Origin: an uncultured Gammaproteobacteria bacterium
Lineage (GTDB): Bacteria; Cyanobacteriota; Vampirovibrionia; LMEP-6097; CAYGPN01
DNA: 64,000 nt
NCBI GenBank assembly: GCA_964352085.1
Contig: CAYGPN010000007.1
Span: forward strand, 27,725-91,724
Direction: 5' to 3'
The notes below the pieces were generated by a model. It worked only from the letters and a program-made list of their open reading frames with translations, made no database searches and was not told the origin of the DNA. This document shows, piece after piece, positions 11,678 through 56,525 of this stretch; position 1 is the stretch's first letter; each line of letters opens with the position of its first letter. The position numbers were made by a program, and so were the translations under genes.

Positions 11678-12262
11678 ATGAAAAAATTAATTACAAGTAT
11701 TTCAGTTGCTGCGTTATTAGCAAGCAGTTTTATTTCAGCTGAGGCTAAGAAATCTACAATTGAATTTGTGGGTAGTGTTTCAGGTTTTGTGAAAATCAAC
11801 TCGCGCTCAAATAGAAATAAAAATAGCACAGTGAGAATTGTTGTTGATCGTATAGATCGAGATTTAGTAGAAGATTTAGAAAGTGGTGATTTGCTTGAGG
11901 CTTGGTTGGTTGATGAAGGGAGAGCTAGCGCGCTTAATGTTGTAAGTAGTGTTGATCCTATCGATGCTTCTCCTGAAGATGAGCAGCCTTTTGGCGATAC
12001 TGCTGTAACGCCACTTGGCTCAACAGTTCTAGATACAAATGGTAACCCCGTTGCTATTTCAAATGTCTCTTTTATAAATTTAGTTGAAGCAGCACCTTTT
12101 GCCATGACTTTAGGCACATTGAAGAAAACTAAAAAGGGAAATTACGTAGGTAATTTTAAAGTCAGATCTAACTTTAACTCTTTTGACTCATTGATGATCA
12201 CTCGTGAGCGTGGTTCTGACCCGCGTCCCGGTGGTTTAGTTGGTGAGGCTAAAGGTCTTTAA
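11678..12262 (+). CDS. hypothetical secreted protein (194 aa)
   Basis: Sec signal peptide MKKLITSISVAALLASSFISAEA. Preferred over the overlapping antisense ORF 11629..12117. Confidence 0.45.
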   Translation: MKKLITSISVAALLASSFISAEAKKSTIEFVGSVSGFVKINSRSNRNKNSTVRIVVDRIDRDLVEDLESGDLLEAWLVDEGRASALNVVSSVDPIDASPEDEQPFGDTAVTPLGSTVLDTNGNPVAISNVSFINLVEAAPFAMTLGTLKKTKKGNYVGNFKVRSNFNSFDSLMITRERGSDPRPGGLVGEAKGL

Positions 12263-13120: not shown

Positions 13121-13819
13121 GTGGAAATCCTAAGCCAAATTAGGATAAGATTTTCATTGGATAGATTTATGAGATTAATTAGTAGTTTAGTTTTAATTTG
13201 TACATTATCACTTCTTTTAGTGCGCCCTTCTTTGGCGGAAGAAGTGCAGAAAGAAAATGCAGGTGCTTCTAAAGATTTCGTACTTAATTATGAAGAAAGC
13301 ACGATAATTGATCCAGCTATAATTCAAAATTCTATAAAACAAGAATCAATAAAAGTAACTAAAGAAATTGATGTTGCTGAAAAAAAGAAAGCTGACCCTA
13401 AGGCTGAGAAGGATAAACGATACGAAACATATAACGGATATATTGCTCAAAGTTTTGAATCAATTGAAGAAGATGAATGGAGCGCTGCTTTAGTAAACAT
13501 CAAATCAGTGTCTAACTATTTCCTTGCAGAGGCAAGAAAATATCCTCAAGAGAAGGAGATTAATGTTTATTTTGGCTTAACAGAAGTTTTTGTATCGTAT
13601 ATTGAAACAGGGATTGAGATTGATAAAGATGTTGATGTGCCTGACTTAGCTAAGATTAAAAAAATGTCAGAAGAGAATCAAAAAAAATCAAACAGTCTAT
13701 CTAAGAAATCTCATGTTGATTATTTAGACGCAAGTTTTAAACTTATTGATCAGTATATTGAAGATGACCTTCTTTACGTAAAAGAAGCTGAAAAATACGA
13801 GAAGAAGGATGAAATTTAA
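13121..13819 (+). CDS. hypothetical secreted protein (232 aa), translationally coupled to hisB
   Basis: Hydrophobic N-terminal signal/anchor. The stop TAA overlaps the hisB ATG (TAATG). Confidence 0.45.
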   Translation: MEILSQIRIRFSLDRFMRLISSLVLICTLSLLLVRPSLAEEVQKENAGASKDFVLNYEESTIIDPAIIQNSIKQESIKVTKEIDVAEKKKADPKAEKDKRYETYNGYIAQSFESIEEDEWSAALVNIKSVSNYFLAEARKYPQEKEINVYFGLTEVFVSYIETGIEIDKDVDVPDLAKIKKMSEENQKKSNSLSKKSHVDYLDASFKLIDQYIEDDLLYVKEAEKYEKKDEI

Positions 13820-14559: not shown

Positions 14560-14595
14560 ATTTTTTCCTTTGCTTTGCTATAATATACTTCAACC
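14560..14595 (+). promoter_or_regulatory. putative sigma70-type promoter for the MNIO peptide operon
   Basis: tgcTATAATat (an extended -10) lies about 55 nt upstream of the precursor ATG. AAGGA RBS at -12. Confidence 0.3.
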
Positions 14596-14646: not shown

Positions 14647-14922
14647 ATGAAGAAAACAAAAATCTTAGGTGCTGCATTAGCTGCTGGTTTAACTGCAGGT
14701 GCTGCAAACGCAATCAACGTACCAGGAGTAGATACTAGTGCAAACACTCTATTTGCAATGGAAGAAGTAGCTTCTCCATCATTGCTTTTAGCTGGTCACG
14801 GTCAATGTGGCGCTGGCAAATGCGGTGGTGATAAGTCTTGCAAAGGTGATCACGACTGTAAAGGTGATCATGACTGCAAAGGCGATCATGATTGTAAAGG
14901 TGATAAGTCTTGCAAAGGTTAA
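14647..14922 (+). CDS. RiPP-type precursor peptide: Sec signal peptide plus a Cys/His/Asp-rich repetitive core (candidate copper-binding peptide precursor, BufA/HvfA-like)
   Basis: 91 aa. MKKTKILGAALAAGLTAGAANA (AxA cleavage site), then QCGAGKCGGDKSCKGDHDCKGDHDCKGDHDCKGDKSCKG, which contains seven Cys. It sits immediately upstream of the DUF692/DUF2063 pair and has a good RBS. Confidence 0.65.
   Translation: MKKTKILGAALAAGLTAGAANAINVPGVDTSANTLFAMEEVASPSLLLAGHGQCGAGKCGGDKSCKGDHDCKGDHDCKGDHDCKGDKSCKG
14821..14919 (+). repeat. tandem 18-bp coding repeat (about 5.5 units) encoding (C-G/K-G-D-H/K-D/S)n
   Basis: tgcaaaggtgatcacgac / tgtaaaggtgatcatgac / tgcaaaggcgatcatgat / tgtaaaggtgataagtct / tgcaaaggt. 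There is synonymous third-position variation between units. Confidence 0.85.
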
Positions 14923-14942: not shown

Positions 14943-15857
14943 ATGACTTTTAAGAAAACTAAAATTAATAAATTTGGTTTAGGACTAGGGTTGAGGAGTG
15001 AATTGCTCTCCTCAACCCTTTCTTTTTGTCAAGAAAATCCTGAAAATGATCTTATTCAGTGGTTAGAGTTTATCCCTGAAAACTACGCTACTAAAGGTGG
15101 CAAGCATAGAAAAAGTTTTAGGCAAGCAGTGGATGCTGGCTTTCAGTTAATCCCACATTCAGTTTCTATAAGCATAGGAACCGCACCTAAAGAAAAGGGT
15201 GAGATAGTTTTTAATAAATATCTTTTGGATTCTTTGAAAGATATTTTCACTGAAGTAAAACCACCTTGGTTTTCTGATCATTTATCTTTTTCCTACATTG
15301 ATGGTATTTATCTTGAAGACTTAATACCTCTCCCAAGAACTCAAGAAGCGATTGATGTGGTTGCAGACAATGTTAAGTATCTGCAAGATGAATTTCAACT
15401 TCCTTTTTTGGTTGAAAACCCTAGTTACTACTCAAACATTATTCTAAGTGAGATGAAAGAGTATGAATTTTTAAACTCAATAGTGAATAAAGCAGATTGT
15501 GGTTTGCTTTTAGATGTAAACAATATTTATGTCAATTCTGTGAATCATGAATATGATGCTTTTAACTTTCTAGATAATATGGATCTTGATAGAGTGGTTC
15601 AAGTGCATGTGGCTGGGCATGATGCTGATTATAAAACTCCAAGTGGTGAGTTTTTAAAAGTTTTAGATACTCACGGACAAAAAACTTTGCCTGTTGTAAT
15701 GGAGCTTCTAGACAGGCTTTTAGAGAAGACAGAAGTTAACGGTATTCTTTTAGAAAGAGACGGAAATTATCCTGAAGATTTTAAAGAGATAACTGATGAG
15801 TTGAAAGAAATTCGCGCTGTCATGAATAAGCACGAAAAAGTTTTGGAGGTGGTGTAA
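14943..15857 (+). CDS. DUF692 / MNIO (multinuclear non-heme iron oxidative) enzyme, MbnB/BufB/HvfB-like
   Basis: 304 aa. It begins FGLGLGLR and has the TIM-barrel xylose-isomerase-like pattern with conserved His/Asp/Glu positions (PHSVSISIG, SDHLSF, ENPS, LLLDVNN, HVAGH). Confidence 0.8.
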   Translation: MTFKKTKINKFGLGLGLRSELLSSTLSFCQENPENDLIQWLEFIPENYATKGGKHRKSFRQAVDAGFQLIPHSVSISIGTAPKEKGEIVFNKYLLDSLKDIFTEVKPPWFSDHLSFSYIDGIYLEDLIPLPRTQEAIDVVADNVKYLQDEFQLPFLVENPSYYSNIILSEMKEYEFLNSIVNKADCGLLLDVNNIYVNSVNHEYDAFNFLDNMDLDRVVQVHVAGHDADYKTPSGEFLKVLDTHGQKTLPVVMELLDRLLEKTEVNGILLERDGNYPEDFKEITDELKEIRAVMNKHEKVLEVV

Positions 15858-16582
15858 TGGCAGTCAAGACTCCAAGCTTAAGAGAGCTGCAACAAGAGAT
15901 AAAAACTTTTATCTTAGAAAATAAAGAAGGCTCTGTAACTACTTTGCCCAAGCATGAATATGGCAGGCTTAGTATTTACCGTGACCTGATTTATAATATG
16001 ACCACAAATTTCTTTGGGGATGTTTTTCCGCTTTCATATAAATTTTTAAAAAGCGAGTGGAGATCTTTAGTCAAAGAATACTACTCTAAATACACTCCAG
16101 ATGATCCGATTTTGGTTTACATGGCATATAACTTCCCTCTATTTATTCAAGAAAAAGGAGTCGGTCCTGCTTACTTGGCTGAGCTTGCTCTTTATGAGTG
16201 GTGTGAGCTAGAAGTTTCTATTTGCAAGCCTGAAGAGAAGGAGCAAGGCATTAACCCAGCTCATTTGGTAATTGATTTTGAATATCCAGTTACAGACATT
16301 GCTATTGAAATAGAAAAAGATAATCTGTCATACGAGCCTGAGCAAAAGAAACAACAAATACTTTTTTACAGAGACCCTGAAACATTACTAGTAAAAACTT
16401 TTGTGCTTGCACCTACTACGGCGATTGCTATAGAGATGCTTGATAACGGAGCTAGCTTAGGTGAGATCGCTTTAAAGGTTAAGGAAGCTTTCTCATTGCC
16501 AAATGAGATGGATGAAAAATTAAGAACAGATCTATCTGCTTTAATAGCTTCCTTGCAAGATAAGGGTATACTGCTAAAATAG
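15857..16582 (+). CDS. DUF2063-family partner protein (MbnC/BufC/HvfC-like)
   Basis: 241 aa. The start overlaps the MNIO stop (TAATG). The N-terminal L..Q..F...I / RLSIYRDLIYN...FGDVFP motifs are typical of DUF2063 partners of DUF692 enzymes. Confidence 0.65.
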   Translation: MAVKTPSLRELQQEIKTFILENKEGSVTTLPKHEYGRLSIYRDLIYNMTTNFFGDVFPLSYKFLKSEWRSLVKEYYSKYTPDDPILVYMAYNFPLFIQEKGVGPAYLAELALYEWCELEVSICKPEEKEQGINPAHLVIDFEYPVTDIAIEIEKDNLSYEPEQKKQQILFYRDPETLLVKTFVLAPTTAIAIEMLDNGASLGEIALKVKEAFSLPNEMDEKLRTDLSALIASLQDKGILLK

Positions 16583-18928: not shown

Positions 18929-19486
18929 TTAAAGACAAGGACCGTCATTTACTTTAATAGCACCAAAGCTATTCATGATGCACTCATTATTGAAGGTTAG
19001 ATTTTCTGGGCTTGATTCATCACCATTGCAAATTTTGTTTTTAGTTGATTCGCAGCCGTCAAAGTTTACAGTTGCACAGACTGGAGCAAATTCTGTTATG
19101 CAATTAGAACCATCTGGAAGCATTAGTTTCAATGCTTTGTTTTCAACATTATCTTTGTCTGAATCAAATGCAAATAAAGCAAAGATTTCATTTAAAGGCT
19201 CCCCAGTCTTAGATTTCTTCGTTCTTAGCTTGACTTTTGCGGTGCCATTTTTAACATTTGCTTTTTTATTAATTCTTCTAATTCTTGTTTGACCATTGGT
19301 TTTTACTCTTAGTCTTCTAATTCCAGGATCAATATTAGTAACTGTAATAATATTTTTAGCGCGAGCGGTGAGTATGATTGGTGCAAGACCATTAAAACTT
19401 ACAGTTTGTCTAACTTTTCGCAGCTTTGCTGAAGCTGGCATCAAAGAGAAAAGTGATAAAGCTAATATTAGAGTTTTAATTTTCAT
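18929..19486 (-). CDS. secreted Cys-rich protein with a possible Kazal-like C-terminal domain
   Basis: Signal peptide MKIKTLILALSLFSLMPASA. The C-terminal 50 aa carry six Cys (PVCATVNFDGCESTKNKICNGDESSPENLTFNNECIMNSFGAIKVNDGPC), loosely matching Kazal spacing. Confidence 0.4.
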   Translation of the reverse strand: MKIKTLILALSLFSLMPASAKLRKVRQTVSFNGLAPIILTARAKNIITVTNIDPGIRRLRVKTNGQTRIRRINKKANVKNGTAKVKLRTKKSKTGEPLNEIFALFAFDSDKDNVENKALKLMLPDGSNCITEFAPVCATVNFDGCESTKNKICNGDESSPENLTFNNECIMNSFGAIKVNDGPCL

Positions 19487-54983: not shown

Positions 54984-56525
54984 ATGGCTCTAGCTACTGC
55001 TACACCTACATTTTCAGAGATGAGTAATACGAGGCCGGCGCCTCTGGGCTCTCCTGCTTCGAAGGCCTACGAAGCCGTTCAAAATAACAATCAAAATAGT
55101 TCTAACCAAGATGCTCCTCTAAATGAAAAAAAAGAGGAGCATTCTTTTTCTTTTGGGGTTTATGCTGATGCTGTGAAATCTCTCTGGAAGATACTTTCCG
55201 GAGCCATGGTAACTGAGGTTTTACGTGGAATTTTAAAGACTGATGATAAGTTCTCGTTAGCAAAAATTATTGATAAATCATTTCGCGTAGATTTTATTTC
55301 TAGATTTGTTGGTGATTTCGGTGGAGCCTTAATGGTTAGGATTTTAAATGGTAAGACAAAGTTCCTTGGCATGACAATCCCTAAGGTGCACACAGCAATT
55401 TCTTCTCAACTCTTTACAAATCTTTGGGTGAAATTTTGGCGTACGATGTCAAGTTCAGATAATCTAAATAAATTATCAGCAGATAATAATGACAACGAAG
55501 TTGCTAAGAAAAATATTGAGAAATTCCAGAATAAAACTTGGCATAAGATTCTTACCAGCATGAATGGCTTCTATAAAAATAAACTTGCACCAAACATTAC
55601 TCTATTCTTCTCTAAGATTTTTGGAATTAAGCCTGGTGAGAAAAACGCTGATGGTAAAACTGCTGATCCTAGTATCAATTGGATGCATTTTGGATCTGTT
55701 GCAGCTGCAGCTGGCTTAGGGACTTGGTTCTTGCCTGGTGACACTCAGATATTTGGTTTTGAAGATGTTCATAAAAGTAAAGATGCAAAATCTACTTTCT
55801 TAAATTCACTTTTAACTTGGGGTTTAACATCACTTGTTAGATTGGAGAATTATATCTTCAATAACGCCGTTACTTTACAACCTAAGGGTTATGGTTTCGA
55901 TGCTTGTAAGAAAATTGCAGTTCGCGAAAAAGGATTTATACCGATGGCGCAATATGCTTGCGATACTGTTGCTGCCGTTCTTTCTAAATCGACCAGTATG
56001 AATGGAGCTTTCTTATCATCTATTTTAAGGTTACCAATTGAAATTGCGACTACTTTCTTGACAGCTAGTTTAGTGGGTGTGTCTAAAACAAATAGGGTAC
56101 AAGATCATTGGGTGCTTCTTGCTGACAAGCTTATCAAGCCAATAGCGAAGAAGGTTGAGTGGATAGTTTCACCAGTCTTTGGTTTAGTGAGAGCTTTAAT
56201 TTACACGCCAATCTTTGGCTTCTTTGATCCTGCTGATGAAGGAGATAGTATCCCTTATGAAGAAGATAAAACACAGCTTTCTAAAGAAAAAGAAGAAGCT
56301 CTTTATAAGCGTATAGGTCATAGAAGTAAATTTAGATTATTTCTTAAGTCAGTCTTGTTTGACTGGTGGGCTAAAGATGTAGGAACTGCTCTGAAGCTAA
56401 GTATGAATGGTGGTACTAAGTCTAAGAAAGCTGCTCCGCCTGCTGCTGGCAAGGTTAAACAGGGCGTGGACGAAAAAAAGGGAGCCCTTAAGGCTCCCGA
56501 GTCAAAGCTTAATGCCTCTAAGTAA
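54984..56525 (+). CDS. hypothetical protein (513 aa)
   Basis: Clean ORF with no recognised domain. The C-terminus is Lys/Ala-rich. Confidence 0.45.
   Translation: MALATATPTFSEMSNTRPAPLGSPASKAYEAVQNNNQNSSNQDAPLNEKKEEHSFSFGVYADAVKSLWKILSGAMVTEVLRGILKTDDKFSLAKIIDKSFRVDFISRFVGDFGGALMVRILNGKTKFLGMTIPKVHTAISSQLFTNLWVKFWRTMSSSDNLNKLSADNNDNEVAKKNIEKFQNKTWHKILTSMNGFYKNKLAPNITLFFSKIFGIKPGEKNADGKTADPSINWMHFGSVAAAAGLGTWFLPGDTQIFGFEDVHKSKDAKSTFLNSLLTWGLTSLVRLENYIFNNAVTLQPKGYGFDACKKIAVREKGFIPMAQYACDTVAAVLSKSTSMNGAFLSSILRLPIEIATTFLTASLVGVSKTNRVQDHWVLLADKLIKPIAKKVEWIVSPVFGLVRALIYTPIFGFFDPADEGDSIPYEEDKTQLSKEKEEALYKRIGHRSKFRLFLKSVLFDWWAKDVGTALKLSMNGGTKSKKAAPPAAGKVKQGVDEKKGALKAPESKLNASK

Follow-up and report, generated by a model that had tools for sequence, protein, structure and literature searches.

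The question raised by this locus is what is made from a 91-aa open reading frame (ORF) that ends in a tandem array of Cys-containing hexapeptides, and what becomes of its seven Cys. The ORF lies at 14647-14922 (+) in the window, by which we mean the whole 64,000-nt stretch of contig CAYGPN010000007.1 that was analysed. We find that it is most probably the precursor ("A" gene) of a three-gene captophorin-type cluster for a ribosomally synthesized peptide that is modified after translation (RiPP), composed of the precursor, an MNIO enzyme, and a DUF2063 partner with a RiPP recognition element (RRE), and that it likely works by the mechanism proposed below. The observations made here that carry this assignment are the gene order, the family assignments, the homology of the leader, the selection on the repeats, and the covariation between enzyme and substrate. 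In its sequence the locus is an uncommon variant within a very widespread family that was described recently, rather than a new kind of system.

The precursor is laid out as a signal peptide, a leader, and a core (MKKTKILGAALAAGLTAGAANA / INVPGVDTSANTLFAMEEVASPSLLLAG / HGQCGAGKCGGDKSCKGDHDCKGDHDCKGDHDCKGDKSCKG), and 14647-14919 (+) translates as MKKTKILGAALAAGLTAGAANAINVPGVDTSANTLFAMEEVASPSLLLAGHGQCGAGKCGGDKSCKGDHDCKGDHDCKGDHDCKGDKSCKG followed by a stop codon. The core, HGQCGAGKCGGDKS(CKGDHD)x3CKGDKSCKG, forms the C-terminal end of the precursor (14797-14919 (+), with the hexad array proper at 14821-14919), and translation returns exactly the core sequence of the original prediction, which a model had made from the DNA letters. 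That prediction described a near-perfect hexapeptide array with seven Cys. The seven Cys (residues 54, 59, 65, 71, 77, 83, and 89) and an 18-nt array are indeed present; however, only three units are exact CKGDHD, and these are neighboured by CGGDKS and CKGDKS and then a final CKG. Using Tandem Repeats Finder, we observed an 18-nt period of 5.2 copies at 14827-14919 (score 82) and a 36-nt period of the core array with a score of 128, and a repeat search found four core copies in register at 18-nt steps. The prediction had also placed every Cys 6 residues apart, with Lys/Gly upstream and Asp/His downstream. The intervals are 5, 6, 6, 6, 6, and 6, and the flanks are reversed, with Lys-Gly downstream and Asp-His-Asp upstream of the Cys. 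Two Cys-Gly contexts (C54 and C59) are followed by five Cys-Lys-Gly contexts (C65-C89). When the 41-aa core was shuffled 2,000,000 times, five successive 6-residue Cys spacings were obtained in 8 cases.

At the nucleotide level, the three perfect CKGDHD units differ at four positions (TGC/TGT, GGT/GGC, CAC/CAT, and GAC/GAT), and all four are synonymous third-position C/T changes. The probability that four of four random substitutions would be synonymous is between 5e-4 (equal rates) and 1e-2 (transitions only). Differences confined to synonymous sites point to selection at the peptide level, as had been proposed, and the repeats of two related loci, L164 and L171, likewise differ only synonymously. 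The three CKGDHD units are enclosed by two identical 21-nt copies of GGTGATAAGTCTTGCAAAGGT, which encode GDKSCKG, at 14827-14847 and 14899-14919 (+). The identity of these edge copies next to the synonymously diverged inner units suggests a later duplication or gene conversion at the edges of the array.

Directly downstream of the precursor, after a gap of 20 nt, is the gene for a 304-aa MNIO (DUF692) enzyme of the HvfB/BufB type (14943-15857 (+)), whose stop overlaps by 1 nt the start of the gene for an HvfC/BufC-type partner (PME1; 15857-16582 (+)). The MNIO matches Pfam PF05114 with 265 bits (cutoff 25) and PDB entry 3BWW with E=1.6e-48. Across 40 homologues, H72, H113, E158, D191, N194, H222, D242, and E271 are invariant and H244 is nearly so, and these residues align with the SDH, EN, DxxN, HxAG, DTH, and ERD motifs of 3BWW and MbnB 7DZ9. 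By analogy with MbnB, they are presumed to be the iron ligands. The catalytic Asp is kept, and the enzyme is an MNIO in which the presumed ligand positions are conserved. The partner has an N-terminal DUF2063 domain (37.8 bits, cutoff 27.2) and a C-terminal RRE-like domain, the latter with weak matches to NGO1945_C (E=7.5e-4) and PqqD (E=1.3e-3), and it stands next to the MNIO gene as a PME1 partner does.

The same arrangement was found widely. We scanned species-representative genomes and JGI metagenomes with the MNIO alignment and added the contigs of the closest proteins, which yielded about 170 loci. More than 130 of these MNIO loci, nearly all that have a readable upstream region, carry an ORF with a signal peptide and Cys repeats at the same upstream position, which together with the MNIO and DUF2063 genes bears out the prediction that the window core belongs to an MNIO-associated RiPP precursor. 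The dominant precursor types are KCGEG pentads (HvfA/oxazolin), CKGQNSCKGKGGC... (Buf2), and assorted arrays. In the closest clade, with MNIO identities of 50-67%, the loci share the order HD, creatininase, hisB, precursor, MNIO, HvfC, and an ORF of ~620 aa. A hidden Markov model (HMM) of the region before the core (signal peptide and leader), built from six clade orthologues, matches the window ORF with E=6.3e-16, and the next ORF in the window gives 0.49. The precursors of this clade have homologous signal peptides and leaders but differing cores: KCGEG x4 in L004, SCGEK x5 in L166, EDHKCGEGKCG x2 in L168, KCGKDH x5 in L171, a mixture of CG and CK in L174, and, in the nearest relative L164 (MNIO 67% identical), CDHDKG hexads followed by CGEGKCGG. 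Two of these orthologues pass the HvfA model NF050137 (L168 with 25.1 bits and L004 with 29.3 bits; cutoff 19.5). By leader homology and synteny, the window locus is orthologous to HvfA-type loci and its precursor is a diverged orthologue of HvfA-type precursors. The canonical KCGEG cores of clade orthologues suggest that the window core is a diverged derivative of the HvfA lineage, with Buf2-like Cys-Lys-Gly sites and His/Asp spacers.

An exhaustive phmmer search with the precursor gave 29 relatives in 1.84 billion representative proteins, with alignments running through the leader region at 14713-14796. The CKGDHD unit is absent from all 29; P0136, the precursor of locus L173, has four CKG[DE]K[SDG] hexads. 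A word-indexed homologue search with the precursor gave no match. The original prediction expected the repeat number to vary between strains. Repeat type and number do differ among orthologous loci and lineages; at the strain level, the three samples (sequencing runs) of the organism are 100% identical over the gene. The repeats of the orthologous loci were also checked for frameshifts, and none has one. The His/Asp enrichment is shared by the Melainabacteria-like clade as a whole: of 133 non-redundant precursors, the eight with the most His in their cores all come from the Melainabacteria/Vampirovibrio-like group, and several orthologues (e.g. P0129 and P0137) end in pure His/Asp tails. The original prediction set the Cys-Lys-Gly context against the mostly Cys-Gly cores of MbnA and HvfA; it is not without precedent, being the signature of the Buf2 or "Cys-Lys" group. 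Within the set of 133 precursors, Cys are most often spaced by 6 residues, and seven precursors have at least three successive spacings of 6.

Whether the enzyme would accept such a core can be approached through its selectivity positions. MNIOs of the Lys-Cys type keep Arg15-Arg16 and Phe250 beside the catalytic Asp249, those of the Cys-Lys type (Buf2) have Asp at the Phe site, and FonBC, a Lys-Cys enzyme, does not process a Cys followed by a charged residue, including in an NACKG variant (Gadgil et al., PMC13097082). At these positions the window MNIO reads R18-S19 and E271-R272-D273-G274, such that the gatekeeper Phe beside the catalytic Asp is changed to Gly and the second, Glu-binding Arg is changed to Ser. 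It has neither the HvfA-type determinants (Arg-Arg and Asp-Phe; RR and DF in 3BWW) nor the E-W-D-D of the Buf2 type. Using the MNIO alignment across all collected loci, we compiled a table of covariation between these positions and the cores. Gly follows 95% of core Cys in the loci with ERD-F enzymes (37 loci), and Lys follows 77% in those with EWD-D enzymes (54 loci). The E-R-D-G and R-S signature is found only in the window and in its nearest relative L164, and in these two loci the residue after Cys is Lys in 46%, Gly in 31%, and Asp in 23% of cases. When the second Arg is present, Glu stands at Cys-3 in 72%; the window has Ser at that site and a core without Glu. Other ERD enzymes that lack the Phe also have Cys-Lys-rich or mixed cores, namely those of L006, L088, and L090 (ERD-Q) and of L173 and L174 (ERD-S), where the L173 core has four Cys-Lys plus two other Cys and the L174 core mixes Cys-Gly and Cys-Lys. 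From this enzyme-substrate covariation, we infer that the hexad Cys are genuine substrates of an enzyme with a co-evolved pocket.

The proposed mechanism follows from published chemistry. In captophorins (oxazolin/HvfA, fontiphorin, and the bufferins), Cys are converted to Cu-binding 5-thiooxazoles before Sec export, and the MNIO-PME1 systems characterised to date all form 5-thiooxazoles and bind Cu; the HvfA-type modification, formerly assigned as oxazolone/thioamide, is now regarded as 5-thiooxazole. On the precedent of all these systems, heterodimer chemistry, Sec export, and Cu binding would be expected here as well. In the cytoplasm, the MNIO-partner heterodimer would bind the leader/follower region that links the signal peptide to the core (INVPGVDTSANTLFAMEEVASPSLLLAG, 14713-14796 (+)), the probable recognition sequence for the RRE-containing partner, and would carry out a four-electron oxidation of each core Cys to a 5-thiooxazole. 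The modified peptide would be exported by Sec, and the 22-residue signal peptide would be cut off after Ala22. This Sec-type signal peptide (MKKTKILGAALAAGLTAGAANA, residues 1-22, 14647-14712 (+)) has, as judged from its sequence, a basic n-region, a hydrophobic h-region, and an AxA c-region, with cleavage predicted after Ala-Asn-Ala, and the clade orthologues have the same layout. The mature peptide of ~69 residues would sequester a metal in the periplasm, most likely Cu, held by the N/S donors of the thiooxazoles with about one metal per two heterocycles, and the Asp-His-Asp spacers may contribute ligands. Such a peptide would have arisen from HvfA-like ancestry by replacement of KCGEG pentads with C-K-G-D-H-D hexads. 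The chemistry, the number of the seven Cys that are modified, the export, the metal, and the stoichiometry are extrapolated from the characterised systems. One metal site per repeat, as originally proposed, conflicts with fontiphorin, which has seven heterocycles and up to 4 Cu (PMC13097082), and with the oxazolin model, in which each pair of modifications holds 1 Cu(I) (PMC11252979). A site in every repeat appears unlikely by this comparison, though additional or altered sites could result from the His/Asp spacers.

Several results weigh against the assignment to a captophorin-type cluster. The precursor fails all curated precursor models: the HvfA models NF050137 (KCGExKCG_twice, cutoff 19.5) and NF050188 (cutoff 95) give no match to it at E<=10, and the window core has a single KCG. 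The sole curated precursor model with any match is that of BufA2 (NF050166), which the precursor fails with 21.2 bits and E=2.5e-4 (cutoff 60); a genuine Buf2-type peptide, that of L019, gave 42.3 bits in the same run. The MNIO and its partner are both under the NCBIfam equivalog cut-offs, with 226 bits for BufB (cutoff 310) and 225 bits for HvfB (cutoff 360) in the former and 94.1 bits for HvfC (cutoff 142) in the latter. The post-signal motif of proteobacterial HvfA-like leaders, a 19-residue HMM (NPFxxxELxxGYxLA), gives a non-significant E=2.6 against the window peptide. Genes for copper homeostasis, sigma/anti-sigma factors, and DoxX were not found nearby; tblastn with three DoxX proteins of related loci gave nothing below E=0.59 in the 64-kb window, and the locus is not a canonical four-gene buf1/hvf operon. 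The buf2 cluster is likewise without DoxX in published work, a point in favour of the assignment. Finally, FonBC failed on Cys-Lys, and modification of the five CKG sites rests on covariation. A full-leader HMM of proteobacterial HvfA did match the window with 19.9 bits, which we rejected as direct leader homology and regard as largely signal-peptide similarity, since a Buf2-leader HMM also gives 13.7 bits. Taken by its architecture, the precursor is a captophorin-class member that belongs to neither of the curated precursor families.

It is highly improbable that the ORF encodes an unmodified secreted Cys/His-rich peptide, or is a non-coding DNA minisatellite that adjoins MNIO genes by chance. 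In favour of this, the exact 91-aa sequence has no match in a collection of 15 billion proteins, the word-indexed search found no homologue, and the sequence is a low-complexity repeat. However, its signal peptide and leader are homologous to those of the orthologues (E=6e-16), the exhaustive phmmer search found its 29 relatives, its repeats differ only synonymously, the position it occupies is that of the precursor in >130 loci, and unmodified HvfA did not compete with bicinchoninic acid (BCA) for Cu(I). It is also quite unlikely, though less remote, that modification is partial, such that only the Cys-Gly sites (QCG and KCG) are substrates of the HvfB-lineage enzyme and the five CKG Cys stay as thiols or disulfides and bind metal with the His/Asp spacers, like a small periplasmic metallothionein tail. 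The window enzyme does fall in the E-R-D (Lys-Cys/HvfB-like) group and not with the E-W-D-D enzymes of Buf2, FonBC is unable to process Cys before Lys or other charged residues, and unmodified Cys in disulfides are known in Buf1, Buf2, and HvfA. Against partial modification, the gatekeeper Phe is Gly both here and in L164, whose core is mostly C-D-H, while the ERD-Q enzymes of L006, L088, and L090 pair with Cys-Lys/Ala-only precursors and that of L173 (Ser) with a mostly Cys-Lys core. From these pairings, the ERD lineage evidently handles Cys-Lys substrates. The strict conservation of the hexads at the peptide level fits recognition by the enzyme, without proving it.

The biosynthesis could also be as proposed and the metal role different. 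Here the Asp-His-Asp triads would give mixed N/O/S sites for Cu(II), Zn(II), or Ni(II), or would serve metal buffering or acquisition and not Cu(I) detoxification. The His enrichment across the cores of the Melainabacteria-like clade, the pure His/Asp tails of some orthologues, and the lack of copper-stress genes among those found nearby are consistent with this, and the literature leaves the metal specificity of 5-thiooxazole peptides unsettled and ties some bufferin fusions to mercury. Against this, Cu binding is common to all members that have been characterised, Cu or Au induces expression in model organisms, and the sequence holds nothing that discriminates between metals; we consider a different metal role unlikely. 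We would put forward just as tentatively an extension of the captophorin assignment, in which the locus represents a captophorin subtype of its own. Here one MNIO of the HvfB lineage, in which the change of Phe to Gly has opened the gate and that of Arg to Ser has removed the Glu clamp, would act on Cys-Gly as well as on Cys-Lys/Cys-Asp sites and place seven thiooxazoles between Asp-His-Asp triads. The resulting mixed thiooxazole/imidazole/carboxylate sites would have a selectivity or stoichiometry unlike that of oxazolin and fontiphorin (Cu(I)-only, two heterocycles per metal), and an attenuator hairpin within the enzyme gene would control how much precursor is made.

This hairpin is a terminator-like RNA structure inside the MNIO ORF at 14987-15029 (+), which begins 45 nt past the start codon and covers codons ~15-29. 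It has a 12-bp stem (14987-14998 / 15008-15019) and a 9-nt loop, followed by TTCTTTTTGT, and its 5' arm consists of the codons of the conserved GLGLGLR motif. Compared with dinucleotide shuffles, its stability has z=-3.5 to -4.0, and none of 1000 synonymous-codon resamplings that kept the protein was as stable. With the same resampling, we observed 0/1000 in L166 and L168, 1/1000 in L165, and ~25/1000 in L169 and L174, and no stability signal in L164, L170, L171, and L004. Equivalent hairpins with stems of 12-17 bp and a U-run are located at ~125-170 in L165, ~1884-1930 in L166, ~4039-4085 in L168, and ~160-200 in L169; those of L169 and L174 are weaker, and more distant relatives have none. 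Pair counts show a few compensatory changes and the correct register, but covariation is modest. The consensus terminator scan overlooked the window hairpin due to its 9-nt loop, and Rfam reported only three tRNAs in the 64-kb window, with no known RNA family at the hairpin. Such hairpins in RiPP operons are usually intergenic. The hairpin is a possible attenuator that sets the ratio of precursor to enzyme, and it is plausible that partial termination yields more precursor transcript than enzyme transcript. Upstream, an extended -10-like element (TGcTATAAT, 14576-14584 (+)), read directly from the sequence ~60 nt 5' of the precursor ATG, is a possible promoter of the precursor gene; it is not among the matches of the consensus promoter scan, and its -35 is poor.

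The remainder of the window has no second MNIO locus. The G+C content is 37%, the organism being AT-rich, and the closest named relatives of the MNIO are from metagenome-assembled genomes of Candidatus Melainabacteria, Caenarcaniphilales, and Vampirovibrio. Three ORFs near the cluster, 18929-19486 (-), 11678-12262 (+), and 13121-13819 (+), have N-terminal hydrophobic signal-like segments and no family matches, and the first has a Cys-rich C-terminal domain; the homologous positions are filled in the contigs of relatives. A weakly leader-like ORF at ~55408-55570 (-) was rejected as a chance match (E about 1). The MNIO, the HvfC-like partner, and the 624-aa neighbour are present in the 15-billion-protein collection (sources NCBI and Logan), unlike the precursor, which may be missing from the annotated proteins of the public record.

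Some of the related loci are of interest in their own right. L004 (CAZFCF010000002.1) is labelled "uncultured Gammaproteobacteria bacterium"; it has the order hisB, precursor, MNIO, HvfC, and a GH57-like gene as in the Melainabacteria-like clade, with which its MNIO shares 54% identity, and its taxonomic label looks doubtful. Four Obscuribacteraceae-like loci (L006, L088, L090, and L047) share another kind of precursor, built of S-C-K-x-G-E-K heptads or SCKGK repeats. The MNIOs of the first three have E-R-D-Q at the gatekeeper site, and that of L047 is truncated there. We found no description of this pairing of enzyme and substrate in the literature examined. A search of the supplements of published survey papers likewise gave no CKGDHD/CKGD, Melainabacteria, or Vampirovibrio.

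There are tens of thousands of MNIO-PME1 clusters, and among their precursors only a few types (DUF2282, EGKCG, and Buf2) are characterised. The window locus is a natural hybrid that joins an HvfB-lineage enzyme to a mixed Cys-Gly/Cys-Lys core. Precisely the two positions that mutagenesis has tied to substrate selection are changed in this enzyme, providing a ready test of the selectivity rules, and the core provides a test of how His/Asp spacers affect metal choice or stoichiometry. The class is also extended to Melainabacteria-like bacteria, which are non-photosynthetic relatives of cyanobacteria, a case for which we found no specific description in the literature. Nothing is overturned by these results, and published work already explains the system as a whole.

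Among the known systems close to the window locus are oxazolin (HvfA/B/C of Haemophilus influenzae) and fontiphorin/gonophorin ("Lys-Cys" or Buf_EGKCG). These have a Sec signal, an N-terminal region, and a C-terminal tandem Cys repeat, with an MNIO and a DUF2063/RRE partner directly downstream and an E-R-D catalytic motif in the enzyme (ERDF in 3BWW), as in the window. The KCGEGKCG cores of syntenic orthologues of the window locus pass NF050137, the window core itself begins with Cys in QCG and KCG contexts, and its seven Cys equal the seven 5-thiooxazoles of fontiphorin. However, the window core has D-C-K-G rather than K-C-G at five of seven Cys, a period of 6 rather than 5, and no Glu, and the peptide matches neither HvfA model. 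Its enzyme has Gly for the gatekeeper Phe and Ser for the second Arg, DoxX (HvfX) is lacking, and its host is Melainabacteria-like rather than a member of the Pseudomonadota.

Bufferin 2 (BufA2/B2/C2; Buf_6/12Cys or "Cys-Lys") shares with the window the Cys-Lys-Gly context, the 6-residue Cys spacing (CKGQNSCKGKGGC), the Sec signal peptide, and a three-gene cluster without DoxX. BufA2 is a small folded protein with a fixed six Cys and a disulfide between the first and the last, whereas the window peptide is a tandem array with seven; Buf2 enzymes have E-W-D-D and R-[VIA]-P in place of E-R-D-G and R-S, and the His/Asp spacers are lacking in Buf2. In methanobactin (MbnA/B/C), an MNIO oxidises Cys of a ribosomal peptide to a Cu-binding heterocycle, as proposed for the window, but the leader of MbnA is of the classical kind, without a Sec signal, an oxazolone/thioamide is formed, and the partner is MbnC rather than PME1. 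The window MNIO gives 42.8 bits on the MbnB model (cutoff 325) and its precursor has a Sec-type signal. Methanobactin, unlike the peptide proposed here, is secreted and serves as a chalkophore in the acquisition of Cu. Other hexad arrays directly 5' of an MNIO occur in L070 (Opitutales, CKGKD[SG]), L173/P0136 (CKG[DE]K[SDG]), L171 (KCGKDH), L123, L091, and L164 (CDHDKG). None of these precursors has the C-K-G-D-H-D unit, although L173 contains the CKGDKSCKG string of the window. L164 shares with the window the E-R-D-G / R-S signature of the enzyme and builds its unit from C, K, G, D, H, and D as well, but in the order C-D-H-D-K-G, such that the residues flanking the Cys differ even between the two closest relatives.

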